A DNA stretch of 32,000 nucleotides from Thermofilum pendens Hrk 5 (GCF_000015225.1 NC_008698.1:990001-1022000); one strand, 5' to 3'; counted from the first letter of the stretch, positions 17,396 to 32,000 are shown. Program-made: numbers and translations. Notes: generated from the sequence alone by a model not told the origin.

Positions 17396-18418
17396 CTAGG
17401 TTATGTCGTGCAGGTCTATCGTAGCTTCAAGGATGTCTGTACTGTAGTCGAAGATCCTACGGTAGCTACCAACCATCAGCCTAACTGCTAGAATCTCCTC
17501 GGGAATCCTCCTGGCGAGCTCGTCGAATACTTTCCTCTCCAGGGCTTTTAGCTTCTCCGCGTCGACGTCGAGCAGTCTGTTTGCAGTCGTCTTGTCCCTG
17601 TCGAGGAACACGTGTACAGAGGCTGTGAAGAACTCGGATACCTTGTCGGAAAGCGTCGAGATGGGATTCTTGATCTTCTCTGCCTCCCTTACATGCGGCA
17701 AGGCCTGTGCGATCGAGGCGGCGTGGTCGGCTATGCGCTCGATGTTCTTAAGAACCATGCCGTGCGGCAACACTTCCTCCACCTTCCTTAGCCCGATCTC
17801 CTCGAGACCGACGTAGCCCCTCAGCGCGGCGTGTAGCTGGCGTAGACCGTAGAGGTATAGCTTATCCACGATGTCGTCCCTCGAGACTATCTCGGAGGCT
17901 ATCTTCTCCACGTCTCCCCCTCCGAGCGCCGCCTTTACGTCTTCAAGCATACCCGTGACCGCGTCGCGCATCTTGGTTATAATCGTGGAGACGGGGAGGT
18001 CCTCCACGTTCACGAGAACCTGGAGAACGACCTCCCTGGAGTCCTCGTGTAGTATTTCGACGCCTATAAGCTTCCTCGCGATCGTGTCTTTCAACACGTG
18101 CCTAAACTCCGGGTCGTCCCGCTCGAATACAACCCTTATCATCTTGTACCCCATCAGGTACTTGGACATTACCTCGCGGAGCGCAGCCCCCCGCGTCGTA
18201 TCCTCTCTAACAGAGACCTCGGCGGACGAGAGGGCTTCGGGGCGCTTGAGGCTCGGAACTATGCGTATAGACCCGTCGTTCTCGAGCGACAGCACGAGCA
18301 GGCTCCCCTTCCCTATGCTCAGCTTTTCTGCCCACTCCTTGGGTATTGAGACTATAAACGTTGAACCGCCTGTTAACTGAACCCTCCTAACTACTTTATT
18401 GCTCGTCATTTCTCTCAA
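17396..18418 (-). CDS. AbrB/SpoVT-domain plus PhoU-domain protein, paralogue 2
   Basis: 340 aa from TTG 18418; ATG 18409 ('MTSNKVV') is an equally plausible start. The N-terminus 'VRRVQLTGGSTFIVSIPKEWAEKLSIGKGSLLVLS' is an AbrB hairpin. PhoU-type repeats follow, for example 'SRDDIVDKLYLYGLRQL' and 'NIERIADHAASIA'. Confidence 0.75.
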   Translation of the reverse strand: MREMTSNKVVRRVQLTGGSTFIVSIPKEWAEKLSIGKGSLLVLSLENDGSIRIVPSLKRPEALSSAEVSVREDTTRGAALREVMSKYLMGYKMIRVVFERDDPEFRHVLKDTIARKLIGVEILHEDSREVVLQVLVNVEDLPVSTIITKMRDAVTGMLEDVKAALGGGDVEKIASEIVSRDDIVDKLYLYGLRQLHAALRGYVGLEEIGLRKVEEVLPHGMVLKNIERIADHAASIAQALPHVREAEKIKNPISTLSDKVSEFFTASVHVFLDRDKTTANRLLDVDAEKLKALERKVFDELARRIPEEILAVRLMVGSYRRIFDYSTDILEATIDLHDIT

Positions 18419-18679
18419 TAATGCTCCGTTGCAGATAACATATATATTTTTCTATATTCTTTCTTGTCGCGTACAGTCAAAGCCTCGGGGCGCGGCGTGG
18501 AAGAGCAGCACGTACATTCCCTGTAACATAGGTAAAAGATAAATTGATGTTTGTCTAGGCAGTTGTGGAGGATTCCAAGCATTTTTTAGTATTACGTAAA
18601 AATATGAAGGGCGCGTTATAAAAGATTATTAACATGCGGTAATAAATCTAGTACATATATGTTTTTTGAAATGTAGTTT
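18419..18679. promoter_or_regulatory. 261-nt AT-rich divergent control region (AbrB-PhoU paralogue 2 on the minus strand, hydrogenase-type operon on the plus strand)
   Basis: This is the longest non-coding gap in the window. The minus-strand TATA is 'aaaatatatatg' (plus-strand coordinates about 18440-18452). The plus-strand TATA candidates are 'gttataaaag' (18615-18624), 'aataaatc' (18641-18648) and 'catatatg' (18654-18661). A GC-rich island at about 18467-18530 lies in between. Confidence 0.5.
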
Positions 18680-18691
18680 TTGAGACATGTC

Positions 18692-19120
18692 ATGAGGGGA
18701 GATCTGGGCTTTCGGCGTAAAAGCCTCTGGGTATATCACTTTAACTCTGGTGGGTGCAACGGGTGCGACATAGAGTTTGTCGCTGCTCTTACGCCCCGCT
18801 TCGACCTTGAAAGGCTCGGGGTACAGCTTGTGCCCAGTCCTAGGCATGCGGATGTCCTGGTTGTAACTGGCCCCGTGACGAGGGCTTCTGCGGATGCCTT
18901 GAAGACTATATACGACCAGGTGCCGGAGCCTAGGATCGTGGTAGCCTTCGGGACGTGCGCGTGTAGCGGGGGTGTATTCTCCAATTGCTACAATGTTCTG
19001 GGGGGTGCCGACAAGGTTCTCCCGGTGGACGTGAAGATCCCGGGGTGTCCTCCCAAGCCTGAAAGCTTGCTTCACGCCTTGTCAAGGATAGTTCTGGGTG
19101 AGGCTAATGGGGGGAGGTAG
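18692..19120 (+). CDS. group 4 [NiFe]-hydrogenase small subunit (NuoB/MbhJ/HycG-like, one [4Fe-4S])
   Basis: Cluster ligands present: 'GGCNGCDIE', 'GTCACSGG', 'GCPPKPE'. ATG 18692 is preferred; the TTG 18680 given in the ORF track is possible. Confidence 0.85.
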   Translation: MRGDLGFRRKSLWVYHFNSGGCNGCDIEFVAALTPRFDLERLGVQLVPSPRHADVLVVTGPVTRASADALKTIYDQVPEPRIVVAFGTCACSGGVFSNCYNVLGGADKVLPVDVKIPGCPPKPESLLHALSRIVLGEANGGR

Positions 19121-20720
19121 GATACAGGGTAAGGTTCAGGTTCCTCCCGAAGGCATACGGGAAGCTGTTAGAAGGCTCGTCGCCGAAGGTTACGCTCACC
19201 TAACGGCGATAACGGCGGTCGACCTCCAGGACTCCATAGAGCTGATATACCACTTCGACGGGGGCGGCGGCTACAGACACGTCTCCGTGAAGCTACCCAG
19301 GGCTAACCCGACCCTTCCCTCCATCGCCCAGGTAGTCCCCGGCGCCGACTACTACGAGAAAGAGGTACGCGACTTGTTCGGCGTCAACTTCCAGGACGGC
19401 GCGGAGAAGAGGCGCTTCATACTCCCGGAGTGCTACCCGCCCGACGCGCCTCCCCCCTTACTAAAGGACGTCGACCCTGCCTCGGTGAAAGCGCTAGTCG
19501 CCGAGGCGCCGACGTGCCAGGTTGACGCCGTGGGTTTGCACGCGCCTCTTTCCCCAGAAAGCGTGGTCGTACCCGTAGGCCCGTACCACCCGGCCTTCAA
19601 GGAGCCGGAGTACTTCAGCCTGGTGGTAGACGGGGAGAGGATAGTGAAGGCCTTTGTACGCATAGGGTTCGTGCACAGGGGTATAGAGAAGGCTGCGGAG
19701 TCTAGGAGCTTCTTCAGGGACATCTTCCTCGTGGAGAGGATATGCGGGATATGCAGTACTTCCCACGCGTGGTGCTTCGTAGAGGCTGTCGAGAGGCTCT
19801 TAAACATGGAGGTGCCCAGGAGGGCGGCCTACCTTCGAACCCTCGTCGCGGAGCTGGAGAGAATACACTCCCACGCTCTCTGGCTGGGCCTCGTGGGCTA
19901 CTGGACGGGCTTCGAGACAATGTTCATGTGGGTCTGGGGGCTCCGAGAGACCATAATGGACCTACTCGAGGAGATCTCCGGGAACAGGGTCCACAAGTCC
20001 TTCGTAACCATAGGCGGGGTGCGGCGCGACGTTCCCGACGCCCTGCTGAGACGCGTCTCCGAGAGGGTTGAGACGTTCCGCAGGGAGTTCGAGTCCCTGC
20101 TTGAAAGCCTGTCGTACTCCGAGGAGATAATCTCCAGGACGAAGGGGATAGGGAGGTACAGCCTGGATGATGCCAGGAAGTACTGCGCTGTGGGGCCTGT
20201 TAGGAGGGCTGCGGGAGACCCGTTCGACGTGAGAAGAATAGAGCCCTACGGGGCCTACCCGGAGGTGGAATTCGAGGTCCCCACGTCCAACGAGGGAGAC
20301 GTGTACAACCTCATTAGGGTCCGAGTAAAGGAGGTCGTAGAGTCGGCCAGCATAATCCAGCAGTTGGTCGAAAAGATGCCTTCGGGCAACCCCGTACCTC
20401 CTAAGCCGTTCATGGGCACGGTTCCCGAGGGTGAGGCTTACAGCAGGATCGAGGCTCCGAGGGGCGAGCTGTTCTACTACGTAAAGGCGAATAACACACA
20501 CAACCCCTACAGGGTTAAGGTTAGAACCCCGACCCTGGCGAACATCCAGCTCGCGGCGAAGATCCTCGAGGGGCAGACGCTGTCCGACTTCCCAGTCGTC
20601 GTCACGAGCATAGACCCCTGCTTCAGCTGTATGGACAGGGTGACTATAATCGACTTGTCCGGGAAGAGAAGGGAAGTTTCTTCCAAGTTTTTCGAGTCGC
20701 TTAGAGGGGTGAGGAGATGA
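19098..20720 (+). CDS. group 4 [NiFe]-hydrogenase large subunit fused to an N-terminal NuoC/MbhK-like domain (HycE/HyfG-type architecture)
   Basis: 540 aa. The N-terminal ~140 aa are NuoC-like ('HLTAITAVDL...ELIYHF...YYEKEVRDLFGVNF'). It has the L1 motif 'RICGICSTSH' (nt 19737-19766; Cys216, Cys219) and the L2 motif 'DPCFSCMDR' (nt 20613-20639; Cys508, Cys511). A 26-aa tail follows. The start is GTG 19098 or ATG 19107, and both overlap the small-subunit gene. Confidence 0.85.
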   Translation: MRLMGGGRIQGKVQVPPEGIREAVRRLVAEGYAHLTAITAVDLQDSIELIYHFDGGGGYRHVSVKLPRANPTLPSIAQVVPGADYYEKEVRDLFGVNFQDGAEKRRFILPECYPPDAPPPLLKDVDPASVKALVAEAPTCQVDAVGLHAPLSPESVVVPVGPYHPAFKEPEYFSLVVDGERIVKAFVRIGFVHRGIEKAAESRSFFRDIFLVERICGICSTSHAWCFVEAVERLLNMEVPRRAAYLRTLVAELERIHSHALWLGLVGYWTGFETMFMWVWGLRETIMDLLEEISGNRVHKSFVTIGGVRRDVPDALLRRVSERVETFRREFESLLESLSYSEEIISRTKGIGRYSLDDARKYCAVGPVRRAAGDPFDVRRIEPYGAYPEVEFEVPTSNEGDVYNLIRVRVKEVVESASIIQQLVEKMPSGNPVPPKPFMGTVPEGEAYSRIEAPRGELFYYVKANNTHNPYRVKVRTPTLANIQLAAKILEGQTLSDFPVVVTSIDPCFSCMDRVTIIDLSGKRREVSSKFFESLRGVRR

Positions 20721-21418
20721 ACAAGTATAGGAGTAAGCTGGAAATACTAAAAACCGCCGTTAAAAGCCTCTTACAGCCGCCGCTAACCGTACCTTATACA
20801 GGCCACCTCAACAACTCGTTCATAAGGGGGGCGCCGCTCCTCGATAGGGACAAGTGCCTGGGATGCAGCCTCTGCGCGAGGTCCTGCCCCTCGGGTGCTA
20901 TAACGATGGTCCCCGGGGGGAAGAAGGTTGTAGGTGGGAAGGAGGTCGAGCGGAAAATACCCTCTTTCAACTACTACCAGTGCATATACTGCGGGGTATG
21001 CGCGGAGGTATGCCCCGGCCGGGCGATAAGCATGGTTAAAAAGCAACCCGTGGAGATAATTTCCCTCGCCTCCCTCCTCCCGCTCGCAACGGGCGAGCCA
21101 GAGGCGCTCAAGGTGCTTTTTTCCTTCCTTCTACTCCTCGTAGCCGTAAGCTTTGCGTACTGGCTTTCGGGTAGGGTCGCCGCCAGGGGGAAGCACACTG
21201 AGAAGGCGCGGGAGCCGTTCACGGGCGGTGTAGCCCCCAGGTTGCCCACCTACAGGTACCACGTAGAGGAGCTCTACACGTTCGTGATCCTCTTCGTAAT
21301 GCTCGAGATCACCGCCTTTACCATGATCCTTGAAAGGGACGCCTCGGTAATCCTGCCCTGCCTCCTCTTCCTGGCTTACCTGTTACTACTCGCGTCCCCG
21401 GCTACCCGGGGGAGGTGA
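20717..21418 (+). CDS. 2x[4Fe-4S] ferredoxin subunit (NuoI/MbhN/HycF-like) fused to a C-terminal 3-TM NuoA-like domain
   Basis: 233 aa with an ATGA overlap with the upstream gene. It has two cluster motifs, 'CLGCSLCARSCP' and 'CIYCGVCAEVCP'. Residues ~127-233 have three hydrophobic helices and a TM1-TM2 loop 'KAREPFTGGVAPRLPTYRYH'. This parallels the NuoA in this window ('KRKRYEAGNPPSGEAKTQLPYQYY'). Confidence 0.75.
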   Translation: MNKYRSKLEILKTAVKSLLQPPLTVPYTGHLNNSFIRGAPLLDRDKCLGCSLCARSCPSGAITMVPGGKKVVGGKEVERKIPSFNYYQCIYCGVCAEVCPGRAISMVKKQPVEIISLASLLPLATGEPEALKVLFSFLLLLVAVSFAYWLSGRVAARGKHTEKAREPFTGGVAPRLPTYRYHVEELYTFVILFVMLEITAFTMILERDASVILPCLLFLAYLLLLASPATRGR

Positions 21419-22392
21419 CCGCAGTGCTCGACATTGTCCTCGGCGTCCTGGTCTTCCCCGGGCTCCTGTTCACCGTGGCTATGGGCTTCTGGTTCGAGTA
21501 CCTCGAGAGAAAAGTTACCGCGAGGATCCAGAGAAGGGTGGGCCCCTTGTACGCGGGCCCCCACGGGCTTCTCCAACCCGTCTACGACTTCTTCAAGCTT
21601 CTCTTGAAGGAGGAGATAGTCCCTGGGTGGACCGACGTCTTTACGTTCAGGGTCGCGCCGATCCTAGCCGTAACCATACCTGTCTTCGGTATGTGCGTCC
21701 TCCCGGTGGCGAGCACCAAGGGCCTGCTGTCGTTCGAAGGTGACTTCGCGCTAGTTTTCCTTTTGCTGGCGCTCGGCGTGCTGACCCTGTCCCTCACCGG
21801 CTACTCCGTCCTAAGCCCCTACACGGCGATAGGTGTTGGAAGGCTCCTCGTGCAGTACTCGATGTACGAAGGGGTGTTCCTCTTAAGCCTTGCGTCGGCC
21901 GCCCTGCAGGCGAAGACAATGAGCTTCGAAGGCATACTCGCGTACCAGGAGTCCCACGGCTTCCTCGGTCTCTACCAGCCGGTCTCGCTCGCCGCCGCGC
22001 TCGTCGCGCTACTAGCTAAGCTCGAGAAGCGCCCCTTCGACCTCCCCCACGCCAAGCAGGAGGTCGTAGCGGGCTGGATGACCGAGCTCAGCGGGAGGGG
22101 TCTAGCCTTCATGAGGCTCTACGAGGACTTGAGCATGGTTTGGGGGATAGCGCTCATAGTCGTAGTTTTCCTCGGGGGACCGCTGGGCCCCGGCTACAAG
22201 GAGCTGGGCGCGCTGGCCGGTTTCGCGTGGTTCGCGCTGAAATCGCTAATCGTCGCACTTGCAGTCATCCTCGTTAGCGCGACTACGAGTAGAGTCAGGG
22301 TCTATGGGCTCGCGGAGGTCTTCTGGAAGAGGGTTTACCCGCTAGTCCTGCTCCAGCTAGTCGTGGCGTTCCTTCTGGGGTGGTGGGCGTGA
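21415..22392 (+). CDS. NuoH/MbhM/HycD-like membrane subunit
   Basis: 325 aa with a GTGA overlap. It has 'ERKVTARIQRRVGPLYAGPHGLLQPVYDFFKLLLKEEIVP', the NuoH family N-terminal signature, plus 'EKRPFDLPHAKQEVVAGWMTELSG'. Confidence 0.85.
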   Translation: MTAVLDIVLGVLVFPGLLFTVAMGFWFEYLERKVTARIQRRVGPLYAGPHGLLQPVYDFFKLLLKEEIVPGWTDVFTFRVAPILAVTIPVFGMCVLPVASTKGLLSFEGDFALVFLLLALGVLTLSLTGYSVLSPYTAIGVGRLLVQYSMYEGVFLLSLASAALQAKTMSFEGILAYQESHGFLGLYQPVSLAAALVALLAKLEKRPFDLPHAKQEVVAGWMTELSGRGLAFMRLYEDLSMVWGIALIVVVFLGGPLGPGYKELGALAGFAWFALKSLIVALAVILVSATTSRVRVYGLAEVFWKRVYPLVLLQLVVAFLLGWWA

Positions 22393-22829
22393 TCGAGGAG
22401 CTTCTCTCCGTTCTCGGCGCAGTGATAATCGTGGGAGCCCTCTACTCCAAGAGGGTCTCTCTATCGCTGTTGCTACTCTCCCTCGGCACGGTTCTCGTAG
22501 CCATGTCTATAGGTCTTCTCGTAGGCGCGACGGCGGGCATCCTTGTGGCTACGGTGTTCGCGGGGGCACTGGTAGCGCTTTTATCGCTCTGGCTGATAGT
22601 CACGGAGAAAGAGGAGGCGAGAGCAGACTCGATCTACGTGGTGGCGGCAGTATTCTTCGTGTTGATAACGGTGGCTTTCGCCGTGCTCCTCGCATTCGCC
22701 TATAGGCTCTCCCCGGTACCCGTTATCCTCAGGAAGTTTACGGCGGAGGACGCTTACCTGCTCCTCACGTTGCTCCTCGTCTCCGTTACAAGTTCAATCT
22801 ACGTTTTGAGGGGTGATAGAGTTGCCTGA
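22380..22829 (+). CDS. NuoJ-like small membrane subunit
   Basis: 149 aa with about 5 TM segments. Its position and pattern ('VGALYSKRV..SLLLLSLGTVLVAMSIGLL...VFAGALVALLSLWLIV') parallel the NuoJ at 30266. Three alternative GTG starts exist (22380/22383/22389). Confidence 0.6.
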   Translation: MVGVIEELLSVLGAVIIVGALYSKRVSLSLLLLSLGTVLVAMSIGLLVGATAGILVATVFAGALVALLSLWLIVTEKEEARADSIYVVAAVFFVLITVAFAVLLAFAYRLSPVPVILRKFTAEDAYLLLTLLLVSVTSSIYVLRGDRVA

Positions 22830-23121
22830 AAGTATCGTGCTATTAGGCGTTGGGGGATTGCTCGTCATCGCCGGTGCAACCTCGGTAGCCGCTACCAGGA
22901 ACCTCGTAAAGGTGGCTATGGGGCTTCAGGCAATGATTCTAGGCTCGTTACTCATACTGTCCACTGCTGTTGGGTCGTCGCCTACCCCCTCCGTCGACCC
23001 CGTACTCCTGGTGGTCGCGGCCGCCGGAGCATCGGAGGTCGTGTCGATCTCTGTGCTTTACCTGGCGTGGAGTAGGCACAGGACGATAGACCCCCACAGG
23101 ATCTCAGAGCTGAAGGGGTGA
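22813..23121 (+). CDS. NuoK/MnhC/HyfE-like small membrane subunit
   Basis: 102 aa with 3 TM segments. 'RNLVKVAMGLQAMILGSLLIL' aligns with NuoK 'RSVVKVMISLEIMFNGVLLAL' at 30748. The TM3 Glu is kept ('GASEVVS'). Confidence 0.7.
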   Translation: MIELPESIVLLGVGGLLVIAGATSVAATRNLVKVAMGLQAMILGSLLILSTAVGSSPTPSVDPVLLVVAAAGASEVVSISVLYLAWSRHRTIDPHRISELKG

Positions 23122-24788
23122 TAGGCGTGGGTGTAGCAGTTGTACCGGCTTTACTGATACTTTCGAGCCTCGTATGCGCTGTGCTAGGACCGCTGTCGCG
23201 TCGTCTATGCGAGGCTCTCGCGGTGCTCGCAACGTTCGTAGGCGCCTGCCTATCCGCCGCTTTCTTCGCCGGATACCTGCCACCGGGCCCCGGAGCTTAC
23301 GGGGACTGGATTTCCCGCCTGATGCTAGCCGTAGTGAACGTCCTAGGCTTCCTCATAACGCTGTACAGCGTCGGCTACATGTCGGGAGAGGCCGGCTACG
23401 TCCGCTACTACTCGCTGATACTCCTGTTCATAGGCTCGATGTCGGGGCTCGTCCTCACCGAGGACCTAGTCCTCCTCTACTTGTTCTGGGAGCTCGTAGG
23501 GGTATGTAGCGCACTGCTCATCGCGTACTGGTGGGAGAAGCCGGAAGCAAGGAGGGCGGGCCTCAAGGCGTTCACCGTGACGAGAGTGGGAGACGTAGGG
23601 CTCCTACTGGCTCTGGCAACGGTAATCCAAGCTACCGGGACGACGCGCATCCCCGGGGTGATCGCCTCCCTCTCGGGCAACGCGCAGCTAGCCCTGACGG
23701 TGTGCAGTCTCCTGCTCGTAGCGGCTGTGGGCAAGTCCGCTCAATTCCCCCTCTTCGTCTGGTTGCCGGACGCAATGGAGGGGCCCACGTCTGTCAGCGC
23801 CCTGATACACGCCGCGACAATGGTCAAGGCCGGTGTCTACCTGCTCGCGCGCTTCTACCCGCTCCTACAGGTTGCGCCCGGGCTAGGCGAGCTCGTTGTC
23901 TACCTGTCCGTATTCACGGCTCTACTCTCGGCGCTCGCAGCCCTGGGAGCCTCTGACCTGAAGAAGGTATTAGCGTATAGCACGATAAACCACCTAGCGC
24001 TAATGTTCCTGGCGATAGGTGCAGGCGCACTCGGAGCGGCGATGTACCACTTGCTCGCGCACTCGATGTTCAAAGCGCTCCTATTCCTCTGCGCCGGTCT
24101 AATAATCCATGAGACGAAGACGAGGAGCCTTGACAAGCTCGAAGGGCTTTGGGACGCCGGGCTGAAGTTTACCGCTGTGGCGTTCCTCGTCGGGGCGCTA
24201 AGCCTTGCCGGGCTACCCCCGCTCCCCGGCTTCTTCACCAAGGAGGCTGTCCTCGCCTCGCTGGAAAGCGCTATACACGGCGAGGCTGTCCTAGCCCTCT
24301 GCTTCGCGCTGAGTGCTCTCTCCTCCCTATACATCTTCAGGCTGTTCTTCAGGCTATTCACTGGTTGTTGCTTCAGGCCTCTACACGAGGAGCTCGACGC
24401 GATGACTGTGCCTATAGCTGTGCTCGCAGTACTTACCGCCCTAGGGCTACCAGTGTTACAGGCTGTGCATGCCTACCTCGGAGTTCCCCTCGAGCTCTCC
24501 GAGGTGAACCTCCCGGCCGTCGTCGGCGCTTTCGCCGGGCTAGCCGTTTCGTACGCGGTGTGGGGTAGGCACGCTCTCGCCGAGCTGAGGCTGTTCCTGA
24601 GACCCCTAGCGCGGGTAGCGGACAGGGGCTTCTACTTCGACGACCTCTACACCTTCCTGGCAAAGAGGGTAGTCAGCATTCTCTCGGGCACGTTTACGAG
24701 GCTTCAGTACGGCAACCCAGCTGTTAACACCCTGTGGCTCCTCGGCTTCCTCCTCGTCTTGTTGATAGTTGTCCTGGGGGTGATCTAG
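23118..24788 (+). CDS. NuoL/MnhA-like antiporter-type subunit
   Basis: 556 aa with a GTGA overlap. Motifs present: 'LFWELVGVCSALLIAYW', 'GKSAQFPLFVWLPDAMEGPTSVSALIHAATMVKAG', 'YSTINHL'. The C-terminal 'RGFYFDDLY...' segment plus a final TM helix resembles the NuoL lateral helix and its anchor. Confidence 0.85.
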   Translation: MIGVGVAVVPALLILSSLVCAVLGPLSRRLCEALAVLATFVGACLSAAFFAGYLPPGPGAYGDWISRLMLAVVNVLGFLITLYSVGYMSGEAGYVRYYSLILLFIGSMSGLVLTEDLVLLYLFWELVGVCSALLIAYWWEKPEARRAGLKAFTVTRVGDVGLLLALATVIQATGTTRIPGVIASLSGNAQLALTVCSLLLVAAVGKSAQFPLFVWLPDAMEGPTSVSALIHAATMVKAGVYLLARFYPLLQVAPGLGELVVYLSVFTALLSALAALGASDLKKVLAYSTINHLALMFLAIGAGALGAAMYHLLAHSMFKALLFLCAGLIIHETKTRSLDKLEGLWDAGLKFTAVAFLVGALSLAGLPPLPGFFTKEAVLASLESAIHGEAVLALCFALSALSSLYIFRLFFRLFTGCCFRPLHEELDAMTVPIAVLAVLTALGLPVLQAVHAYLGVPLELSEVNLPAVVGAFAGLAVSYAVWGRHALAELRLFLRPLARVADRGFYFDDLYTFLAKRVVSILSGTFTRLQYGNPAVNTLWLLGFLLVLLIVVLGVI

Positions 24789-26081
24789 GTGGAGAAGGAG
24801 ATTGTAACCCTTGTCTTTGCGGGGTCCCTGGCCATCCTTTCCTCGGGCTTCCTCCCGGGGAAAGCGTCTAGATACGCGTCCACGGCTCTTTCATCGGCAG
24901 TGATGCTGGCACTCCTGTATATAAGCCTGGGAAACCCCGGGCTAGCGGGGTACGTGGGCTTCGTTTCCTCGGTGATAGGGCTCGCCGCCGTGATCTCCGG
25001 CTTGGACCTCGTAGAGGAGTCTAAACCCCTGCACGACGCGCTGGTCACCGTGCTTACAGCCAGCCTGCCCCTCCTGCTCCTACTCGGCGACCTGCTCAGG
25101 CTGTTCGTGGCGTGGGAAACTATCAGCGTCTGTATACTCGCGTTGACGGCTTTCCACAGGGATAGGGAGAGCGCCGAGGCCGCGGTAAAGTACATCATGC
25201 TGTGCGGAGTGGCATCTCTGCTCGCGCTTGCAGGCATAGCGCTATCCTACTTGGAGACAGGCTCCCTGTCCGTCGAGTCCTTCGCTAAGGCAAGCCTCGC
25301 GGCGAAAATGCTCGTAGTAGTGGGCTTCGGCGCCGAGGCCGCGGTGTTTCCGCTCCACTTCTGGCTACCGGATGCGCACATGGTGGCACCGAGCACTGCG
25401 AGTGCAGTCCTTTCGGGGATAACGATAGAGGCGGCAGGGCTACTCGTCTACAGGCTAGTAGGCTCTGAGCCCATCCTACTGAGGCTCCTCTCGGTGTTGG
25501 CAGTGGCTGGCGCACTTCTCGGAAACTTCTCAGCGTACAGGCAGGTCGACGTCAAGAGGCTACTGGCGTACAGCTCGGTTGCAAACGTAGGCTACATCTT
25601 CCTCGGGTTAACCTCCGGGAATGCTACCGCGAGGACAGCCGCCTACCTCCACGTAGCGGGCCACGGCTTCCTAAAGGCTGCCCTCTTCATACTCTCGGGC
25701 GTGCTCCTGGCGGACTTCGGCTCAAGGAGGCTCGACAAGCTTCAAGGCTCCCTCTCGGGGAGCAAGGTCCTCAAGGCCGTGCTCGTAGTGGCCGCGCTCG
25801 GCTTAACGGGGGCACCGCTAGCCCTCACATTTTGGTCGGAGCTCTACATAATAGTCGGAGTTGCCCAGTCATCGCTACTGCTAGCGCTCCTAGCCTTAAC
25901 GGCGGTAATAGCCTCTTTCGGCTACTACTTCAACCTGGTATACGCGCTCTGCGTAGGGGAAGGCTCCAGGCCTTCTGGGAAGCCTAGGCTCGCGGCAGAA
26001 CTCTCCATCGTGGGGCTCGTCGCTCTCTCCGCCTCGTTGCTAGTGCTCTACGGATGGATCGCCGGCTACTTCGCTCTCTGA
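24789..26081 (+). CDS. NuoN/NuoM/MnhD-like antiporter-type subunit
   Basis: 430 aa; the GTG start directly abuts the upstream stop. Motifs present: 'FPLHFWLPDAHMVAPSTASAVLSG' and 'LLAYSSVANVGYIFLG'. Confidence 0.8.
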   Translation: MEKEIVTLVFAGSLAILSSGFLPGKASRYASTALSSAVMLALLYISLGNPGLAGYVGFVSSVIGLAAVISGLDLVEESKPLHDALVTVLTASLPLLLLLGDLLRLFVAWETISVCILALTAFHRDRESAEAAVKYIMLCGVASLLALAGIALSYLETGSLSVESFAKASLAAKMLVVVGFGAEAAVFPLHFWLPDAHMVAPSTASAVLSGITIEAAGLLVYRLVGSEPILLRLLSVLAVAGALLGNFSAYRQVDVKRLLAYSSVANVGYIFLGLTSGNATARTAAYLHVAGHGFLKAALFILSGVLLADFGSRRLDKLQGSLSGSKVLKAVLVVAALGLTGAPLALTFWSELYIIVGVAQSSLLLALLALTAVIASFGYYFNLVYALCVGEGSRPSGKPRLAAELSIVGLVALSASLLVLYGWIAGYFAL

Positions 26082-26242
26082 CGCGCAGTATCCCTGAAGG
26101 CAAAGCGAGGCTAGACTTTACCGGAAGCCTCTTTTTTACTTTGGTCAAGCGCTTTCTTTACCGCCCAGCTGAAACAGATATATCAAGATTATTAGCTATT
26201 AACGTAAAGATTTAAATCCTCGGGTCAAAGGTTTTTAAAGAG
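26082..26242 (+). promoter_or_regulatory. inter-operon spacer: T6 terminator tract (26132-26137) then the TATA-like promoter of the nuo-type operon
   Basis: 'cctcttttttac' lies after the stop of the last hydrogenase-type gene. 'aaagatttaaatcc' (tttaaat at 26211-26217) lies 26-32 nt before GTG 26243. Confidence 0.5.
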
Positions 26243-26614
26243 GTGTACGCGGTGTCTCCTTCGAGTACACTCGCGTTGACCCTGTTCTTGGGGATCGTAG
26301 CGGGGCTACTAGTAGTCGTCCTGGCGCTCATACTCGTTAAGGGGCCCGAGGGTAAGTTTAAGAGGAAGAGGTACGAGGCTGGGAACCCTCCCAGCGGCGA
26401 GGCTAAGACGCAGCTACCCTACCAGTACTACGGGTACCTCCTACTCTACCTGACGGTAGAGCCTCTGCTGGCGTTCCTGTACCTTTACCCGGGCGTTCCA
26501 AGGGAACAAGCCTTACCCTCTTTCCTCGTGCTCCTCTCCGCGTTCCTGTTCCTCGCCCCCCTCGTCGCCTGGGGCGTAAAAGCCGCCGATGAGCTGGAGA
26601 GGTGGAGAGCTTGA
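26243..26614 (+). CDS. nuoA: NADH-quinone oxidoreductase subunit A-like
   Basis: 123 aa with 3 TM segments. It has the loop 'KRKRYEAGNPPSG' (the YECG-type motif) and an acidic residue in TM2 ('LTVEPLLAF'). GTG is the start. Confidence 0.8.
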   Translation: MYAVSPSSTLALTLFLGIVAGLLVVVLALILVKGPEGKFKRKRYEAGNPPSGEAKTQLPYQYYGYLLLYLTVEPLLAFLYLYPGVPREQALPSFLVLLSAFLFLAPLVAWGVKAADELERWRA

Positions 26615-27126
26615 GCTGCCCCCTCGGCTTCGTAATGGTGGGTAGGCTCGAAGAGTCCGCCAGAAAGGCTGCGCAGTGGCTCGTAGAGAAAACGCCGATA
26701 AGGTCCCTGAGGGACTGGGCGATAACATTCAGCCTGTGGCCTGTCCACTTCACCACTTCTTGTTGCGGCGCGGAATTTGCCGCTACCTCTGCTCCGCGCT
26801 TCGACGCCGAGAGGTTCGGCTTCCTACCGTTCAACTCGCCCCGCCAGACGAACCTGATGGTTATTGAGGGTACTCTTACGAAGAAGATGGGGGAGGCCGC
26901 CAAGATAGTCTATGACCAGATGCCGTGGCCAAAGTTCGTCATAGCCATGGGTGCATGCGCGATAGACGGCGGCCTGTTCTACAACAGCTATAACATAGTG
27001 AGGCCTAAGGACATACTCCCCGTGGAGTACTTCATTCCCGGTTGCCCGCCCAGGCCCGAGGCAGTAGCCCAGGCGATAATCATGCTTCAAGAGAAGGTGA
27101 GGAAGGGTGAGTGGAGAAAAGCCTAG
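26602..27126 (+). CDS. nuoB: NADH-quinone oxidoreductase subunit B-like (N2 [4Fe-4S])
   Basis: It has tandem cysteines 'TTSCCGAEF', then 'MGACAIDGG' and 'PGCPPRPE'. The start is GTG 26602 (13-nt overlap with nuoA) or ATG 26635. Confidence 0.9.
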   Translation: MESLSCPLGFVMVGRLEESARKAAQWLVEKTPIRSLRDWAITFSLWPVHFTTSCCGAEFAATSAPRFDAERFGFLPFNSPRQTNLMVIEGTLTKKMGEAAKIVYDQMPWPKFVIAMGACAIDGGLFYNSYNIVRPKDILPVEYFIPGCPPRPEAVAQAIIMLQEKVRKGEWRKA

Positions 27127-27592
27127 CTGGCTGGTAGCCCTGGAGGGCAGGTTGAGGGAGCTGGGCGCGGAGCTCGAGGTACAGGGGAGCATACTCAGGG
27201 TGAGGCCAGCGCCGGGCAAAGTCCGGGAAGTAGCCGCGGCGGCCGTGGAGGCGGGCTTCGACCACCTAGCCTCCGTCGAGGGCATCGACTGGCCGTCCAA
27301 GGGGGTTATCGAGGTGGTTTACCACGCCGAGAGCTACGAGCCTGAGAAGAGGAGGTTCCTCTTCGAGGTCAGGGTGCAGTTGCCGCGCGAGAAGCCCGTT
27401 ACCCCGTCTCTCTTCGACGTATGGCCGAACGCGCTCTTCATGGAGAGGGAGACCTGGGAAATGCTGGGGGTAATCTTCGAGGGGCACCCGGAGCTCCGCA
27501 GGCTACTACTGCCCCCGGGCTGGGAGGGGCCCCCGCCCTTGAGGAAGGACTTCAAGGTTGTAGAGGAGGGTATATATGTTGAGTACGAGTAG
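27107..27592 (+). CDS. nuoC: NADH-quinone oxidoreductase subunit C-like
   Basis: 161 aa. 'FDHLASVEGIDW...EVVYH...FMERETWEMLGVIFEGHPELRRLLLP' is the NuoC/30-kDa signature. Confidence 0.85.
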   Translation: MSGEKPSWLVALEGRLRELGAELEVQGSILRVRPAPGKVREVAAAAVEAGFDHLASVEGIDWPSKGVIEVVYHAESYEPEKRRFLFEVRVQLPREKPVTPSLFDVWPNALFMERETWEMLGVIFEGHPELRRLLLPPGWEGPPPLRKDFKVVEEGIYVEYE

Positions 27593-28790
27593 CGGTGTCG
27601 TATACTCGAGGCTGTTACTCAGGGAGGGCGACGAGTCCGTCTACGAGCTCTTCATAGGGCCGCAACACCCATCCTCGGGCCACATGAGGTTCATAGTGAG
27701 GCTTCAGGGAGACGTAATAGTGTCCGTCGACCCGGACATAGGCTACGTGCACCGCACGATGGAGAAGCTCGCCGAGGGGCGGGAGGCCATAAAGGCGATA
27801 CCGCTCCTCGAAAGGCTGACGATAATAGACTCGCATAACGCCACGGTAGGCCTGGTAACGGCGATGGAGAGGCTTCTCGACGTGGAGCCTCCGCCGCGGG
27901 CCCTCTACCTCAGGACTCTTCTCTCGGAGATAAACAGGATAGCGAGCCACCTGTACGGGATGGGCATAGCCGGGATCATGCTGAACCACTCGACGATGTT
28001 CATGTGGGCGTTCGGGGACCGCGAGGTGTGGCTCCAGCTCGCCGAGGAATTGACGGGGGCCAGGCTCACACACACCTACAGCGTGCCAGGGGGTGTGAGG
28101 AGGGATCTTCCGCAGGGCTTCGGGGAGAAGTTCGAGAAAGCAGCTAGGTACATGGAGAGGAGGTTGCAGGATTACATGAGGATCTTCCTGGAGAACCCCC
28201 AGGTGGTCGCGAGGTACGAAGGCGTAGGGGTGTTGAAGAAGTCCGAGGCCTCCAGGCTCGGGGTCGTGGGCCCGAACCTACGCGCGAGCGGCGTGAAATA
28301 CGACGCTAGGCTCGCGGACGACTACGGTGCCTACAAGGACCTCGAGTTCGAGGTTCCAACCCGAGAGGAGGGCGACTGTATGGCTAGGATGCTGGTTAGA
28401 GTGGAGGAGATAAAGCAGAGCATCTCGATCATACGCCAAGTACTCCGGAAGATGCCGGATGGACCCATACTCTCCGAGAAGTACCTCAAGCTCCTGCCGC
28501 CCAAGACTCGCGAGAGGGTTTTGCAGGAGGGGAGGGTCAAGTTCCCGGCGCTCTTCGCCTCCCTGAAGTTGCCCGCCGGCGAAGCCGTGGCTAGGGCCGA
28601 GATGGGGCACGGCGAGATATTCTACCACATCACGGGGGACGGGTCGGCGAAGCCGTACAGGCTCCGGGTCGTAACGCCCTCCTTCAGGAACGTCATACTG
28701 TTCAGGTACCTGGCCCCCGGTCACAGGTTTATGGATTTCCCCGCGATATACGGTTCTCTGGACTACTTCCCTCCCGAGGCGGATAGGTGA
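27576..28790 (+). CDS. nuoD: NADH-quinone oxidoreductase subunit D-like (49-kDa family, no Ni-Fe ligands)
   Basis: 404 aa. Motifs present: 'GPQHPSSGHMRF', 'DIGYVHRTMEKL', 'PGGVRRDLP'. The positions of the hydrogenase L1/L2 cysteines read 'ERLTIID' and 'LDYFPPEADR', followed directly by the stop. Confidence 0.85.
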   Translation: MLSTSSGVVYSRLLLREGDESVYELFIGPQHPSSGHMRFIVRLQGDVIVSVDPDIGYVHRTMEKLAEGREAIKAIPLLERLTIIDSHNATVGLVTAMERLLDVEPPPRALYLRTLLSEINRIASHLYGMGIAGIMLNHSTMFMWAFGDREVWLQLAEELTGARLTHTYSVPGGVRRDLPQGFGEKFEKAARYMERRLQDYMRIFLENPQVVARYEGVGVLKKSEASRLGVVGPNLRASGVKYDARLADDYGAYKDLEFEVPTREEGDCMARMLVRVEEIKQSISIIRQVLRKMPDGPILSEKYLKLLPPKTRERVLQEGRVKFPALFASLKLPAGEAVARAEMGHGEIFYHITGDGSAKPYRLRVVTPSFRNVILFRYLAPGHRFMDFPAIYGSLDYFPPEADR

Positions 28791-28796
28791 TCCTGT

Positions 28797-29810
28797 ATGG
28801 GGCTAGTCGAGTGGATAGTAAGGCTCGTGCTCTCCCCCGGGGTGTTCGCCCCGGTGATATTCCCGGGTTTGCTCACAGCGCTGGCGGTACTGCTCATAGT
28901 AATATGGGCCGAGAGAAAGATAGCCGCTAGGGTCCAGATGCGCGTTGGACCCCTCTACGTTACGAGGCACTTCGGAGGAGTACTGCAGATGCTGGCCGAT
29001 GGTACGCGCTACATGTTCCAGGAGTTCATCGTACCGGAGACCGCGGACAAGGTTCCCTACATGCTTGCACCGGCGCTCGCGCTAACCCTGGCTATAGCCC
29101 CCTTCGCCCTGATACCCTCTGCTCCGGGCTTCGCGCCGGTAAAGTCTCCGTACTCCCTCCCCGCCCTGCTGGCTATCCTGGCGAGCACGCCGCTCTCAGT
29201 CCTGCTCATGGGCTGGTCTTCTAACAACAAGTTCAGCATACAGGGCGCTGTCAGGGAGGCGTTCATGACTCTAGCCTACGAGGTCCCCCTCTTCCTGTCG
29301 GCTCTCTCCATGGCTATACTCTACGGGTCGATGGATCTCGAAGAGATCGTTGGCAGGCAGTTCCTGCCCGGAGCGCTCCTGAACCCCGTCGCGGCCTTCA
29401 CCTTCTTCGTCGCGATGGTCATGAGCTCCGGGAGGCTACCCTTCGACATTGTTGAGGGCGAACAGGAGATAGTGGCAGGCCCCTACGTCGAGTACACGGG
29501 GATCGTTTTCGGGATAGGCATGGGCTTAGCGTACCTAAAGCTCTACGCCCTCTCGCTACTCTACTCGCTACTCTTTCTGTCGGGCTGGGAGCCCCTGCCC
29601 CGCGCCCTCTACTCGGTGTACCCCGGGCTCGCCGGCGTATGGCTCTTCGCGAAAGCGTTTACGCTGATGCTGTTCGTAGTCTTCCTCAGGTCCGTGTACG
29701 GGAGGTACAGGCTGGACCAGGCTCTCCGCGCAGGGTGGAGGGTGTACCTGGTCCTAGCCGTTGTTTCGATTCTTCTTTCATGCTTGCTTAGGGTGGTGGT
29801 GAATGTCTAG
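28797..29810 (+). CDS. nuoH: NADH-quinone oxidoreductase subunit H-like
   Basis: 337 aa. Motifs present: 'ERKIAARVQMRVGPLYV...GGVLQMLADGTRYMFQEFIVP' and 'GRLPFDIVEGEQEIVAGPYVEYTG'. Confidence 0.9.
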   Translation: MGLVEWIVRLVLSPGVFAPVIFPGLLTALAVLLIVIWAERKIAARVQMRVGPLYVTRHFGGVLQMLADGTRYMFQEFIVPETADKVPYMLAPALALTLAIAPFALIPSAPGFAPVKSPYSLPALLAILASTPLSVLLMGWSSNNKFSIQGAVREAFMTLAYEVPLFLSALSMAILYGSMDLEEIVGRQFLPGALLNPVAAFTFFVAMVMSSGRLPFDIVEGEQEIVAGPYVEYTGIVFGIGMGLAYLKLYALSLLYSLLFLSGWEPLPRALYSVYPGLAGVWLFAKAFTLMLFVVFLRSVYGRYRLDQALRAGWRVYLVLAVVSILLSCLLRVVVNV

Positions 29811-30273
29811 CTACGTGAAGAACTTTGGGGGGCACGTGAGGGCGGTCCTCACGGGGCTAAAGTACCTCGTGAAGCCCAACAGGATCACGGTCTACTACCC
29901 GGAGTACTACGTGGAGCCCCCGGAAGGCTACAGGGGCATGATCAAGTACTACCCGGAGAAATGCATCCAGTGCGGCCTCTGCGCTATGATATGCCCGGCG
30001 GGCGCCATGAAGATGTACGTCAAGAAGGGCGAGAAGAAGGGCAGGCCGGGAGTGAACTACCAGCGGTGTATCTTCTGCGGCTTCTGCGTGGACATTTGCC
30101 CCCAGGACGCCCTGGAGATGACGAAGGTCCACGATGTCGCTTTCTCCAGCTTGGAGGAGCTAGTCTTCCCGCCGGAAAAGCTGGCAGTCGAGGTGCAGTC
30201 CCCCGCGCTTCTGAGGGGCGCCGTCAAGGTGAAGCCTGTTTTCGACGAGGAGAGGGGGTTGAGGCATGAGTAG
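29803..30273 (+). CDS. nuoI: NADH-quinone oxidoreductase subunit I-like (2x[4Fe-4S])
   Basis: 156 aa. Motifs present: 'CIQCGLCAMICP' and 'CIFCGFCVDICP'. It overlaps nuoH by 8 nt. Confidence 0.9.
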   Translation: MSSYVKNFGGHVRAVLTGLKYLVKPNRITVYYPEYYVEPPEGYRGMIKYYPEKCIQCGLCAMICPAGAMKMYVKKGEKKGRPGVNYQRCIFCGFCVDICPQDALEMTKVHDVAFSSLEELVFPPEKLAVEVQSPALLRGAVKVKPVFDEERGLRHE

Positions 30274-30751
30274 CCTGTTGCTCGTATACGTGTTGATCTC
30301 GTGCGCCGTCGCGGTGGCGTCCTCCCTGCTCGCGGTGAAGGTGAAGGAGGACTTCTACGCCGCAGTACTGCTCGGCTTCGTTGGCCTCTCGGTAGCCTCG
30401 CTGATAGCACTGCTCGGCTTTACCTACGTCGCCGTGTTCCACGCGCTAGTCTACGTCGGCGCCACGGTGCTCTTCGTGATAATGGGGGTGATATTCATAG
30501 GCAGGGGGCTGGGCTACGAGAGGAGGATGCTCGCCGCCGGGGTGCTCACATCGGTGTTTGCAGGCTCCCTCTTCTACTACGCGCTCCAGAGCTCCGCGGC
30601 CAGCGGGAGCCCCGCCCCCAGAGTCGGCGTCGACCTGCAACAGCTCTCCCAGGCAGTCCTGCAGAACCAGGTCGCCCTCGTCTTTCTGGTGTTCGCCCTC
30701 GCCCTCCTCCTCGTCGCGGGTTTACCCGTTGCTAGGGGTGATGCTAGATGA
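30266..30751 (+). CDS. nuoJ: NADH-quinone oxidoreductase subunit J-like
   Basis: 161 aa with 5 TM segments. It has 'VAVFHALVYVGATVLFVIMGVIFI' (the NuoJ 'VYxGA' block) and sits between I and K. Confidence 0.75.
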   Translation: MSSLLLVYVLISCAVAVASSLLAVKVKEDFYAAVLLGFVGLSVASLIALLGFTYVAVFHALVYVGATVLFVIMGVIFIGRGLGYERRMLAAGVLTSVFAGSLFYYALQSSAASGSPAPRVGVDLQQLSQAVLQNQVALVFLVFALALLLVAGLPVARGDAR

Positions 30752-31053
30752 TTGAAGCCCTGTACGCCTACCTAGCGGCGTCCGCCGCCCTCTTCGGCAT
30801 CGGAGCACTAGGGGCGGTTGTAAGCAGGAGCGTGGTGAAGGTGATGATATCCCTCGAGATAATGTTCAACGGGGTACTGCTAGCGTTGCTAACTCTAGCC
30901 AGCATGGGCAACCCGCTCGTAGGCTATACTCTCTCCCTCTTCGCGATAGCTTTGAGCTCGGTCGAGGTGGGCTTACTCGTTTCTGTTTTCATCCTCCTCT
31001 ACAGGAGGACTAGAAGTTTGGACGTTTATGAGATTCCCGGTTTAGGTGAGTAG
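30748..31053 (+). CDS. nuoK: NADH-quinone oxidoreductase subunit K-like
   Basis: 101 aa with an ATGA overlap and 3 TM segments. Both conserved glutamates are present ('SLEIMFNG' in TM2 and 'SSVEVGLL' in TM3). Confidence 0.85.
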   Translation: MIEALYAYLAASAALFGIGALGAVVSRSVVKVMISLEIMFNGVLLALLTLASMGNPLVGYTLSLFAIALSSVEVGLLVSVFILLYRRTRSLDVYEIPGLGE

Positions 31054-31054
31054 T

Positions 31055-32000
31055 ATGGGTGTACCGTACCTCTGGTTGGCGTTGCTGGTACCCTTAGCGG
31101 CGTCACTGGCCTCGCTGGCGTTAAAGAGCAGGAAAGCTCTAGCCGCGCTGAACTCCTCTGCCCTAGCGTTCTCGGCCGCCGTCCTCCTCCTACTCTACCT
31201 CACCAACGGCTCGAACAGGTGGTTCGACCCCCTCTCGTTCAAGCTGGGAAGCCTGGGGACTTTCTCGCTGGTTATGGACCCCATGGTATTCCTGGTAGCG
31301 TTCAGCGTGGCGGTTACAACCTCTGTCATCGCGCTCTACAGCTCCCCCTACATGGAGCATAGATTCGAGGAGCTTGAACGCGAAGGGGTCTCGGCGCCCG
31401 GGTGGGGGGCCTACTACTTCCTCTACACGCTCTTTGCCCTCTCGATGATGGGCACCGTCATGTCCACGAACATAATTGAGTTCTACGTGTTCCTCGAGCT
31501 AACGCTCATCCCCAGCTTCCTGCTGATAGCCTTCTACGGCTACGGCGAGAGGCTGAAGATAGCCATAATGTACCTCATCTGGACCCACGTGGGCGCCCTC
31601 CTCTTCCTCATAGGTGCGCTGACCGTGGGCTCCAAGGTGGGCTTCGACTTCGTAGATCCCGAGAAGGGCTTCCTCCTGGGGCTGGGCGAAGGCGTGGGCG
31701 TGCTCGCCTTCTGGCTTATGGTGGTAGGGCTCTCGGTGAAGCTAGCGGCGGCGGGCCTGCACATGTGGCTCCCCTACGCCCACGCTGAGGCCCCCACGCC
31801 CATCTCGGCGCTCCTAAGCCCGAACCTCATCGGGCTGGGAGGAGCGATGATGTTCCGCGTCGTCTACGTGCTTTTCCCGAAAACCTTCGCCGCCGCCTCG
31901 CCGGTACTGATGGCGTGGGCCCTCGTAACGATGATCTACGGCGGGCTTATGGCGCTGAGCCAGTCCGATTTCAAGAGGCTCCTCGCGTACAGTAGCATCA
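31055..32000 (+). CDS. nuoM: NuoM-like antiporter-type subunit, 3'-truncated by the window end
   Basis: This gene is not in the ORF track because it has no stop in the window. My hand translation from ATG 31055 gives 'MGVPYLWLALLVPLAAS...EFYVFLELTLIPSFLLIAFYGYGERLKIAIMYLIWTHVGALLFL...AAAGLHMWLPYAHAEAPTPISALLS...FKRLLAYSSI'. The 'EFYVFxELxLIP...YG..ER' block is NuoM-type rather than NuoL-type. Confidence 0.75.
   Translation, partial: MGVPYLWLALLVPLAASLASLALKSRKALAALNSSALAFSAAVLLLLYLTNGSNRWFDPLSFKLGSLGTFSLVMDPMVFLVAFSVAVTTSVIALYSSPYMEHRFEELEREGVSAPGWGAYYFLYTLFALSMMGTVMSTNIIEFYVFLELTLIPSFLLIAFYGYGERLKIAIMYLIWTHVGALLFLIGALTVGSKVGFDFVDPEKGFLLGLGEGVGVLAFWLMVVGLSVKLAAAGLHMWLPYAHAEAPTPISALLSPNLIGLGGAMMFRVVYVLFPKTFAAASPVLMAWALVTMIYGGLMALSQSDFKRLLAYSSI

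Follow-up and report, generated by a model that had tools for sequence, protein, structure and literature searches.

The question raised by positions 18680–26081 of this stretch of Thermofilum pendens Hrk 5 DNA is whether eight genes that look like those of respiratory complex I actually code for a hydrogenase and, if so, for one of which kind. We examined them in the window, by which we mean the whole stretch of 32,000 nucleotides (nt). In our opinion, the product of the eight genes is quite probably a group 4 [NiFe]-hydrogenase, membrane-bound and energy-converting, of the complex-I-like kind referred to as "Hfo" or 4g. A group 4 [NiFe]-hydrogenase with neither a Mrp module nor a formate dehydrogenase (FDH) or carbon monoxide dehydrogenase (CODH) partner had been proposed in a preliminary description of the locus. 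This proposal is supported by the alignment of the Ni–Fe cysteines, by their retention in 120 out of 120 of the closest database relatives of the large subunit, and by the presence of hycI, hypA and hypC beside the operons of relatives. The suggestion that the architecture might be new has to be abandoned, as it has been catalogued as Hfo/4g (PMC7886697).

Eight open reading frames (ORFs) on the + strand fill the interval. The tight packing previously described is confirmed by inspection of the ORFs and junctions: consecutive genes overlap by 23, 4, 4, 13, 17 and 4 nt, the last two abut (0-nt gap), and ATGA or GTGA is found at four of the junctions. The genes are the following.

18680..19120, + strand: small subunit, NuoB/HycG-like, 146 aa (PF01058 at 5e-35)
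19098..20720, + strand: catalytic large subunit, NuoC–NuoD fusion (Pfam Complex1_30kDa, NiFeSe_Hases and Complex1_49kDa)
20717..21418, + strand: NuoI–NuoA fusion, 233 aa (matches to NuoI TIGR01971 and Fer4; tail assigned by profile comparison)
21415..22392, + strand: NuoH-like membrane subunit, 325 aa (PF00146 at 1e-72)
22380..22829, + strand: hydrophobic 149-aa protein at the NuoJ position, weakly assigned (no Pfam or NCBIfam family)
22813..23121, + strand: NuoK-like subunit, 102 aa (PF00420 at 4e-8)
23118..24788, + strand: NuoL-type antiporter-like subunit, 556 aa (NuoL NF005141 at 2.8e-125)
24789..26081, + strand: second antiporter-like subunit, NuoN/M/MbsH-like, 430 aa (PF00361 at 9e-55)

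The gene order, B-CD-(I-A)-H-J-K-L-N, is colinear with nuo except that I precedes H and that A is fused behind I.

The Ni–Fe site and the affiliation of the enzyme

The ORF of the large subunit is 100% identical to the T. pendens protein ABL78470.1 / WP_011752735.1 / A1RZ40. It had been described as a NuoC–NuoD fusion of 540 aa; Pfam confirms the fusion, but 540 aa is the length of the maximal ORF, and the public model begins at ATG 19107 and has 537 aa. The motifs reported earlier are all present as quoted: L1, RICGICSTSH, is found at aa 214–223 (nt 19737–19766) and L2, DPCFSCMDR, at aa 506–514 (nt 20613–20639), and in the small subunit GGCNGC is at 18749–18766, GTCACSGG at 18950–18973 and GCPP at 19043–19054. 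The CGICSTSH part of L1 and the whole of L2 agree with the group 4 consensus, C[GS][ILV]C[AGNS]xxH and [DE][PL]Cx[AGST]Cx[DE][RL], as quoted in PMC7886697. Whether the four cysteines occupy the positions of the Ni–Fe ligands was a check set by the earlier proposal, and the HMMER alignment places them there: they match the ligand cysteines of HycE (7z0s_E; RVCGICGFAH and DPCYSCTDR) and MbhL (6cfw_L; CGICSFSH and DPCLSCTDR), whose structures have been solved, and the L1 histidine and L2 arginine are kept. The L2 arginine is followed by a C-terminal extension of 26 aa (nt 20640–20717), as in HycE, where the extension is cleaved by HycI. Among the solved structures, HycE gives the best match with the complete large subunit (292 bits), and MbhL with its D-part (271 bits, 41% identity).

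The small subunit, whose probable start is ATG 18692, has a single [4Fe–4S] site with four cysteines of the CxxC type (C26, C29, C93 and C123), which align with those of HycG, HyfI and EchC. Where these proteins have a CxxC of the GGCNGC type, NuoB has SCC. The T. pendens subunit carries the hydrogenase-type cluster motif, which is distinct from the CC motif of NuoB. Its identity is 50% to E. coli HycG, against 42–44% to NuoB. The affinities of the complex are modular, B and CD being closest to Hyc while H and L are closest to Nuo.

We constructed a neighbour-joining tree of the D-part of the large subunit (357 columns, 300 bootstraps), with E. coli HycE, HyfG and NuoCD, P. furiosus MbhL and MbsL, EchE from a Butyrivibrio echABCDEF operon and a Coo-like protein from Azospirillum as references; the sequence from Pyrodictium delaneyi is not in the tree. 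All proteins with the four cysteines split from Nuo and Mbs with a bootstrap of 100%, and Hyc and Hyf together form a clade, also at 100%. The T. pendens protein belongs to clade A (Thermofilaceae, Thermogladius, Fervidicoccaceae and Desulfurococcaceae; 98%), which groups with clade C (96%). Clades A and C are in turn sister to clade B, which is bathyarchaeal and has C and D fused (41% for the three clades together). The identity of the D-part to that of T. pendens is 52–56% in clade C, 47–51% in Bathyarchaeia, 44% for the Coo-like protein, 42% for EchE, 41% for MbhL, 37–38% for HycE and HyfG, and 37% for the NuoD encoded by the neighbouring operon described below. From the grouping in the tree and these identities, it follows that the enzyme lies outside the characterised subgroups 4a, 4d and 4e as they are represented in the tree, which bears out an earlier claim.

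A NuoH-like subunit (PF00146) and two antiporter-like subunits (PF00361) are encoded in the same operon; group 4 demands a NuoH-like subunit and at least one antiporter-like subunit. The FdhH and HycB/HyfA partners of group 4a are missing from the window and from the relatives' loci examined, and the large subunit is outside the HycE/HyfG clade. There are no Mrp-derived MbhA–G subunits as in the Mbh-type 4d enzymes, and the operon is not the six-subunit echABCDEF of the Ech-type 4e enzymes, with its single antiporter-like subunit; EchE is outside clade A. Complex I has a NuoD devoid of the cysteines and a NuoB with the tandem-cysteine N2 motif, and the operon encodes neither, the genuine pair being found downstream, at 26602–28790. 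Regarding Hfo (HydDB subgroup 4g-6), we detected no Mrp-type Na+ module and no F420 or NADH input module (ORFs, Pfam/NCBIfam), as expected for this kind; however, of the 11 Fpo/Nuo subunits that define it (A, B, C, D, H, I, J, K, L, M and N), T. pendens has ten modules, in eight genes, with two PF00361 proteins.

Hfo was described by Loh, Herve and Brune in 2021 as a [NiFe] hydrogenase that has the subunit set and gene order of Fpo/Nuo and intact L1 and L2 motifs (PMC7886697). Complexes of this type were reported in Bathyarchaeia, P. delaneyi and Ca. Methanomethylicus (PMC7886697). Since this architecture was published in 2021, the T. pendens complex belongs to a known kind. T. pendens is not named in the text of PMC7886697, we found no paper citing the accessions of the large subunit, and Thermofilum is not listed in the supplements that we examined for HydDB classes. 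In a 2026 study, 4g was found to be polyphyletic.

The membrane arm and the fused NuoI–NuoA subunit

The third gene had been described as coding for a ferredoxin with two [4Fe–4S] clusters. The ferredoxin domain is indeed there (Fer4/NuoI matches), but the protein is not a plain ferredoxin: a C-terminal NuoA/ND3-like module had been overlooked. The NuoI-like 2x[4Fe–4S] domain, with two CxxCxxCxxxCP motifs, spans aa 1 to ~108 of the 233 aa, and the tail (aa ~128–233) is a three-helix module with the motif EPFTGG...LFVMLE. This tail aligns with NuoA and with the free-standing 114- or 115-aa products of the first gene of orthologous operons. Comparison of its profile with that of NuoA (hhalign) gives a probability of 75% and E = 2.6e-5, and the only significant matches of the profile in the PDB are ND3/NuoA chains (E = 1.5e-4). 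Because a NuoA module is present inside this gene, ten of the 11 modules of a minimal complex I are found in the eight genes, which lack just one antiporter-like subunit; the near-complete complex I core announced in the preliminary description is therefore real.

The fusion is also seen in relatives, at L001:11626-12318 (Infirmifilum sp. NZ), L002:11625-12326 (Thermogladius) and L014:11608-12300 (a Thermofilum sp. metagenome-assembled genome, MAG). In Fervidicoccaceae and in clade C, the NuoI and NuoA parts are encoded by separate genes.

Of the membrane subunits that had been described as NuoH-, J-, K-, L- and N-like, the identities of H, K, L and N are supported by Pfam and NCBIfam, while that of J is weak. 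The NuoH-like subunit scores 116 bits with E. coli NuoH, against 75 bits with HycD, and retains most of the acidic residues of the E-channel, the equivalent of E216 being a histidine. In the NuoK-like subunit, the alignment shows that the second conserved glutamate is retained and that the first is a glutamine. The 149-aa protein has no match in Pfam or NCBIfam; its comparison with NuoJ (hhalign) gives a probability of 32%, and its sole profile match in the PDB is NdhG, with E = 4.3. Its location at the NuoJ position is conserved in all relatives examined. Position, size, hydrophobicity and these faint profile matches hint that it may be NuoJ-like.

Two PF00361 proteins are found, in agreement with the two antiporter-like subunits expected. 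The NuoL-type subunit (hereafter HfoL) shares 42% identity with E. coli NuoL and 29% with HycC, and its best matches in the PDB are NdhF, Nqo12 and NuoL. It has retained every signature residue of NuoL: the glutamate of transmembrane helix (TM) 5, the equivalent of Asp178, which is specific to NuoL, the lysine of TM7, the His/His/Lys set of TM11, and the lysine–acidic pair of TM12 (equivalents of K399 and D400). The protein ends with GFYFDDLY, a lateral helix of ~30 residues and a terminal TM anchor helix, the lateral helix being ~25 residues shorter than that of E. coli NuoL. A helix of this length would fit a clamp over one neighbouring pump subunit rather than two.

The best PDB match of the second antiporter-like subunit is MbsH (6u8y_H), from the MBS complex of P. 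furiosus. The canonical lysine of TM7 is replaced with a glutamate, as is the case in six of six orthologues from clades A and C and in MbsH (glutamate positions E183 and E214; the orthologues compared are from loci L001, L002, L005, L006 and L014). The position equivalent to K265 of NuoM is also a glutamate in members of the Thermofilaceae.

Relatives, maturation genes and genomic neighbourhood

The whole cassette of eight genes has been kept in Infirmifilum, Thermofilum sp. and Thermogladius. The orthologous operon of Fervidicoccaceae has the canonical order (A)-B-CD-H-I-J-K-L-N, and the operons of clade C have an unfused D and the order A-B-C-D-H-I-J-K-L-N; both have two antiporter-like subunits. 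Ca. Methanomethylicus and many MAGs of the TACK and Asgard groups are also among the relatives of the large subunit (41% identity for Ca. Methanomethylicus mesodigestus, by tblastn). Two close relatives are binned as "Candidatus Saccharibacteria" (L021, CAZUSK010000041.1, 59%) and "Krumholzibacteriaceae" (L031, DATKLC010000116.1, 47%); these short contigs are probably mis-binned archaeal DNA rather than evidence of bacterial genes.

Maturation genes are found close to several of these operons. In Infirmifilum sp. KC_020, a hycI gene (L020:782-1276, verified with Pfam) is directly upstream of the equivalent eight-gene operon; the operon of Fervidicoccaceae has hycI, hypA and a gene of the ParA type as neighbours, and hycI, hypC and hypA are close to the operons of clade C. 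In another archaeal MAG (L017, 5544–10136), a HycI-like gene stands immediately before a group 4-type cluster of another make-up, which comprises two genes for antiporter-like proteins, one for a 109-aa protein and one for a NuoH-like protein, and represents further architectural variety around this subfamily of HycI-like proteases.

The 32-kb window itself contains none of the Mrp small subunits, FDH, CODH, hyp or hycI, as judged from ORF translations, Pfam searches with the flanking ORFs and tblastn with Hyp and HycI references, in keeping with the absences noted before; neither in the window nor at the relatives' loci examined did we find an FDH, CODH or HycB-like partner. A scan of the window against Rfam gave no match.

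The hydrogenase operon is followed, at a distance of 161 nt, by a canonical nuo-type operon which the preliminary description did not mention.

26243..32000, + strand: canonical nuo-type operon (ORFs, Pfam for NuoA, BLAST)
26243-26614, + strand: nuoA
26602-27126, + strand: nuoB (CC motif)
27107-27592, + strand: nuoC
27576-28790, + strand: nuoD
28797-29810, + strand: nuoH
29803-30273, + strand: nuoI
30266-30751, + strand: nuoJ
30748-31053, + strand: nuoK
from ~31046, + strand: antiporter-like gene, continuing beyond the window
18419..18679, + strand: putative promoter region of the hydrogenase operon (intergenic, 261 nt, AT-rich with a GC content of 36%; TATA-like elements lie ~30 nt before ATG 18692)
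26130..26142, + strand: T-rich tract (T6), candidate archaeal terminator, 50 nt past the stop codon of the hydrogenase operon

In this second operon, NuoD is devoid of the Ni–Fe cysteines, and NuoB carries the CC motif of complex I. The 161-nt gap contains the T6 tract and a separate TTTAAAT element (26211–26217), ~30 nt before the start of nuoA, which suggests that the two operons are transcribed separately. Infirmifilum sp. NZ (L001) and the Thermofilum sp. MAG (L014) have kept the tandem; it is absent in the loci of Infirmifilum sp. KC_020 (L020) and Thermogladius (L002). We considered the possibility that the hydrogenase operon results from a recent duplication of its neighbour, and rejected it, since the identities between the two sets of T. 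pendens proteins are only 32–44% and B and CD are closer to Hyc.

Upstream, the region 18419–18679 is a probable promoter, shared divergently with a PhoU/AbrB-type gene (17396–18418, − strand). This gene codes for an AbrB/MazE–PhoU domain protein, has a paralogue at 15039–15989 (+), and keeps its position, divergent from the hydrogenase operon across the AT-rich region, in Infirmifilum sp. NZ (L001 8273–9286) and the Thermofilum sp. MAG (L014 8328–9350). Its product is a candidate regulator; alternatively, the gene may be connected with pstSCAB, located nearby (7564–11268). Further upstream, between ParB_N-like and GNAT genes, an ORF of 135 aa (16468–16875, −) has no Pfam match; an ORF of equal length is present in the matching region of the Thermofilum sp. 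MAG (L014 6438–6845).

Function, rival explanations and known systems

The most likely function of the complex is ferredoxin-dependent, ion-pumping evolution of H2, possibly reversible. We infer its ferredoxin partner, the direction of the reaction, the pumped ion, the arrangement of the subunits and the activity as follows. The partner would be ferredoxin because the complex has a NuoI-like input domain and no other input module is present at any of the loci examined; 4g/Hfo enzymes are likewise interpreted as ferredoxin-coupled and ion-translocating (PMC7886697; PMC5037454). Ferredoxin reduced by 2-oxoacid and aldehyde ferredoxin oxidoreductases would give electrons to the two [4Fe–4S] clusters of the NuoI-like domain, from which they would pass to the single [4Fe–4S] cluster of the small subunit and then to the Ni–Fe site of the NuoCD-type large subunit, where H2 would be formed from protons. 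A junction made of the NuoA-, H-, J- and K-like parts would convey the free energy to the two antiporter-like subunits, which would export H+ or Na+. The MbsH-like N would sit beside the junction and the NuoL-type L at the end, both being clamped by the short lateral helix of L. In the reverse mode, the ion gradient would drive the reduction of ferredoxin by H2.

Three other explanations deserve consideration. In the public databases, the large subunit is named "NADH-quinone oxidoreductase subunit D" (RefSeq/NCBI) and many of its MAG orthologues "subunit C"; the genome paper of P. delaneyi similarly described two "Nuo" clusters, while the depositors of Thermogladius named the orthologue a membrane-bound hydrogenase. 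Taken at face value, the NCBI name would make the complex a quinone reductase, another respiratory complex I, in which the cysteines are relics. The score of the large subunit with the NCBIfam NuoD equivalog model, 347.6 bits, is indeed only slightly below the cut-off of 360, and the membrane subunits are closest to Nuo. Yet the four cysteines, the L1 histidine and the L2 arginine are conserved throughout the clade, the proteins that have these cysteines stand apart from Nuo in every bootstrap replicate, a processing extension is found at the C-terminus of the large subunit, and there are orthologous operons with hycI next to them; moreover, the small subunit has CxxC where the adjacent NuoB has CC, and the adjacent NuoD has none of the cysteines. 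A quinone reductase is thus hardly credible. That the operon codes for half of a formate hydrogenlyase (FHL), in which an unlinked FDH would donate the electrons and formate oxidation would lead to H2, as in E. coli FHL or Hyf, is reportedly what the 2008 genome paper of T. pendens suggested. We find this distinctly unlikely: no FdhH- or HycB-like gene is present in the operon, in the window or beside any orthologous operon examined, the D-part is far closer to clade C than to HycE and HyfG, which form a clade of their own with full bootstrap support, and the membrane arm is Nuo-like, not Hyc-like, even though HycE is the best full-length structural match, with the NuoC–NuoD fusion and the C-terminal extension in common, the small subunit is half identical to HycG, and formate dehydrogenases are encoded elsewhere in the T. 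pendens genome (PMC2678158).

The third explanation concerns direction rather than identity: the physiological reaction could be H2 uptake, the ion gradient driving the reduction of ferredoxin by H2 to supply low-potential electrons. The characterised group 4 enzymes (Mbh, Ech and FHL) mostly evolve H2, although they are reversible in principle. The habitat of T. pendens offers both sulfur and H2, the adjacent Nuo-type complex could already take care of ferredoxin oxidation, and uptake was proposed by Loh et al. for the bathyarchaeal Hfo (PMC7886697). Against uptake, most biosynthetic capacities are lost in T. pendens, which lives as a heterotroph and for which additional reduced ferredoxin would be of no evident use (PMC2678158), and fermentative organisms that carry the cassette, such as Thermogladius and Fervidicoccaceae, are likely H2 producers. 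We consider uptake unlikely as the main role.

Several observations weigh against an H2-evolving, ion-pumping Hfo-type hydrogenase as we describe it. T. pendens is described as sulfur-dependent (PMC2678158), so that it may release little H2 on balance, or do so only under certain conditions. HydDB assigns Hfo to 4g, none of whose enzymes has been characterised (PMC7886697), and a bootstrap of 41% is weak support for the link with the Hfo clade of Bathyarchaeia. Since the first glutamate of NuoK and the equivalent of E216 of NuoH are substituted, the coupling may differ from that of complex I. The topology of the fusion is puzzling. In the structures of complex I, the N-terminus of NuoA is outside the cell and the loop between TM1 and TM2 is inside, beside the active-site cavity; a NuoA module placed behind a cytoplasmic NuoI domain would require an additional membrane crossing, but in the fusion only three segments are strongly hydrophobic, and the linker of ~15 residues is weakly so. 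A single-sequence AlphaFold2 model of the fusion (pLDDT, the predicted local distance difference test, of 49) is too poor to decide. Last, we located no Hyp or HycI gene for T. pendens, in searches that were insensitive or returned no organism names, so that this is absence of evidence only: a word-indexed search with the HycI of Fervidicoccaceae gave only 2 matches, a HMMER scan for HycI gave 924, of which the 20 named clusters include Fervidicoccaceae, Ignisphaera, Desulfurococcus and Staphylothermus and no Thermofilum, and a HycI profile search, which missed most of its own query sequences, returned no Thermofilum entry. A genome scan with the large subunit did not recover T. pendens itself.

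How complex I originated from membrane-bound hydrogenases is a long-standing question, for which enzymes that pair a working Ni–Fe site with a membrane arm of the complex I type are the most informative extant forms. To our knowledge, no enzyme with this combination has been purified or had its structure solved. The hosts of the bathyarchaeal Hfo are uncultured, whereas T. pendens, Thermogladius and Infirmifilum are cultured, which makes the enzyme accessible to biochemical and structural work; the simpler, two-pump form of these hyperthermophiles is a practical source for biochemistry and cryo-electron microscopy. It is tempting, if doubtful, to see in clade A and its sister clade C a two-pump grade, a living intermediate between the small hydrogenases and the full arm of complex I, characterised by a genuine NuoL with a lateral helix of half length, a MbsH-like pump with glutamate for lysine, and a NuoA module. 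As part of the same tentative idea, the tandem with Nuo could allow Thermofilaceae to switch between H2 and quinone or sulfur respiration; if true, a switch between a hydrogenase and a cysteine-less Nuo for the re-oxidation of ferredoxin would be analogous to the Mbh/Mbs pair of Pyrococcus. More generally, the systematic naming of these proteins as NADH-quinone oxidoreductases hides H2 metabolism in metabolic reconstructions of Thermoproteota.

Compared with known systems, the T. pendens complex has in common with the group 4a enzymes of E. coli, Hyd-3 (HycBCDEFG, 7z0s) and Hyd-4 (Hyf), a large subunit in which NuoC and NuoD are fused, an extension of the kind that HycI cleaves in Hyc, and a small subunit that is 48–50% identical; a NuoK-like protein and the presence of several antiporter-like subunits are further features shared with Hyf. 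The complex differs from these enzymes in that it has no FdhH/HycB partner, another gene order, a D-part only 37–38% identical that belongs to a separate clade, and a membrane arm of the NuoA/H/J/K/L type. The MBH (6cfw, 4d) and MBS (6u8y, sulfane-reducing) complexes of P. furiosus have a similar ferredoxin-type input, through a NuoI-like subunit, and the second pump of T. pendens resembles MbsH, with which it shares the glutamate of TM7; in contrast to both, the T. pendens complex has no MbhA–G, has a lateral helix of the NuoL type and has C and D fused, and unlike MbsL its large subunit keeps all the Ni–Fe cysteines. The archaeal 11-subunit complex I (Nuo/Fpo-like, without NuoEFG) has the same set of modules in a nearly equal order, the NuoL signatures and lateral helix, and the acidic residues of NuoH, but the T. 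pendens hydrogenase has a Ni–Fe site in place of the quinone pocket, CxxC in place of CC and one antiporter-like subunit fewer.

The likeness is closest with Hfo, which has intact L1 and L2 motifs, the core A, B, C, D, H, I, J, K, L and N, and no Mrp, FDH or CODH, which is often mis-annotated as Nuo, and whose proteins from Bathyarchaeia and Methanomethylicus count among the nearest relatives (41–51% identity). However, T. pendens has eight genes for its ten modules and two antiporter-like subunits instead of three, its NuoI precedes NuoH and is fused to NuoA, while nuoA comes first in Hfo, and its large subunit has the 26-aa C-terminal extension that the bathyarchaeal clade lacks. Two pumps, a short lateral helix, the CD and I–A fusions, the MbsH-like glutamate and the tandem with Nuo are thus the variations of T. 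pendens on Hfo.

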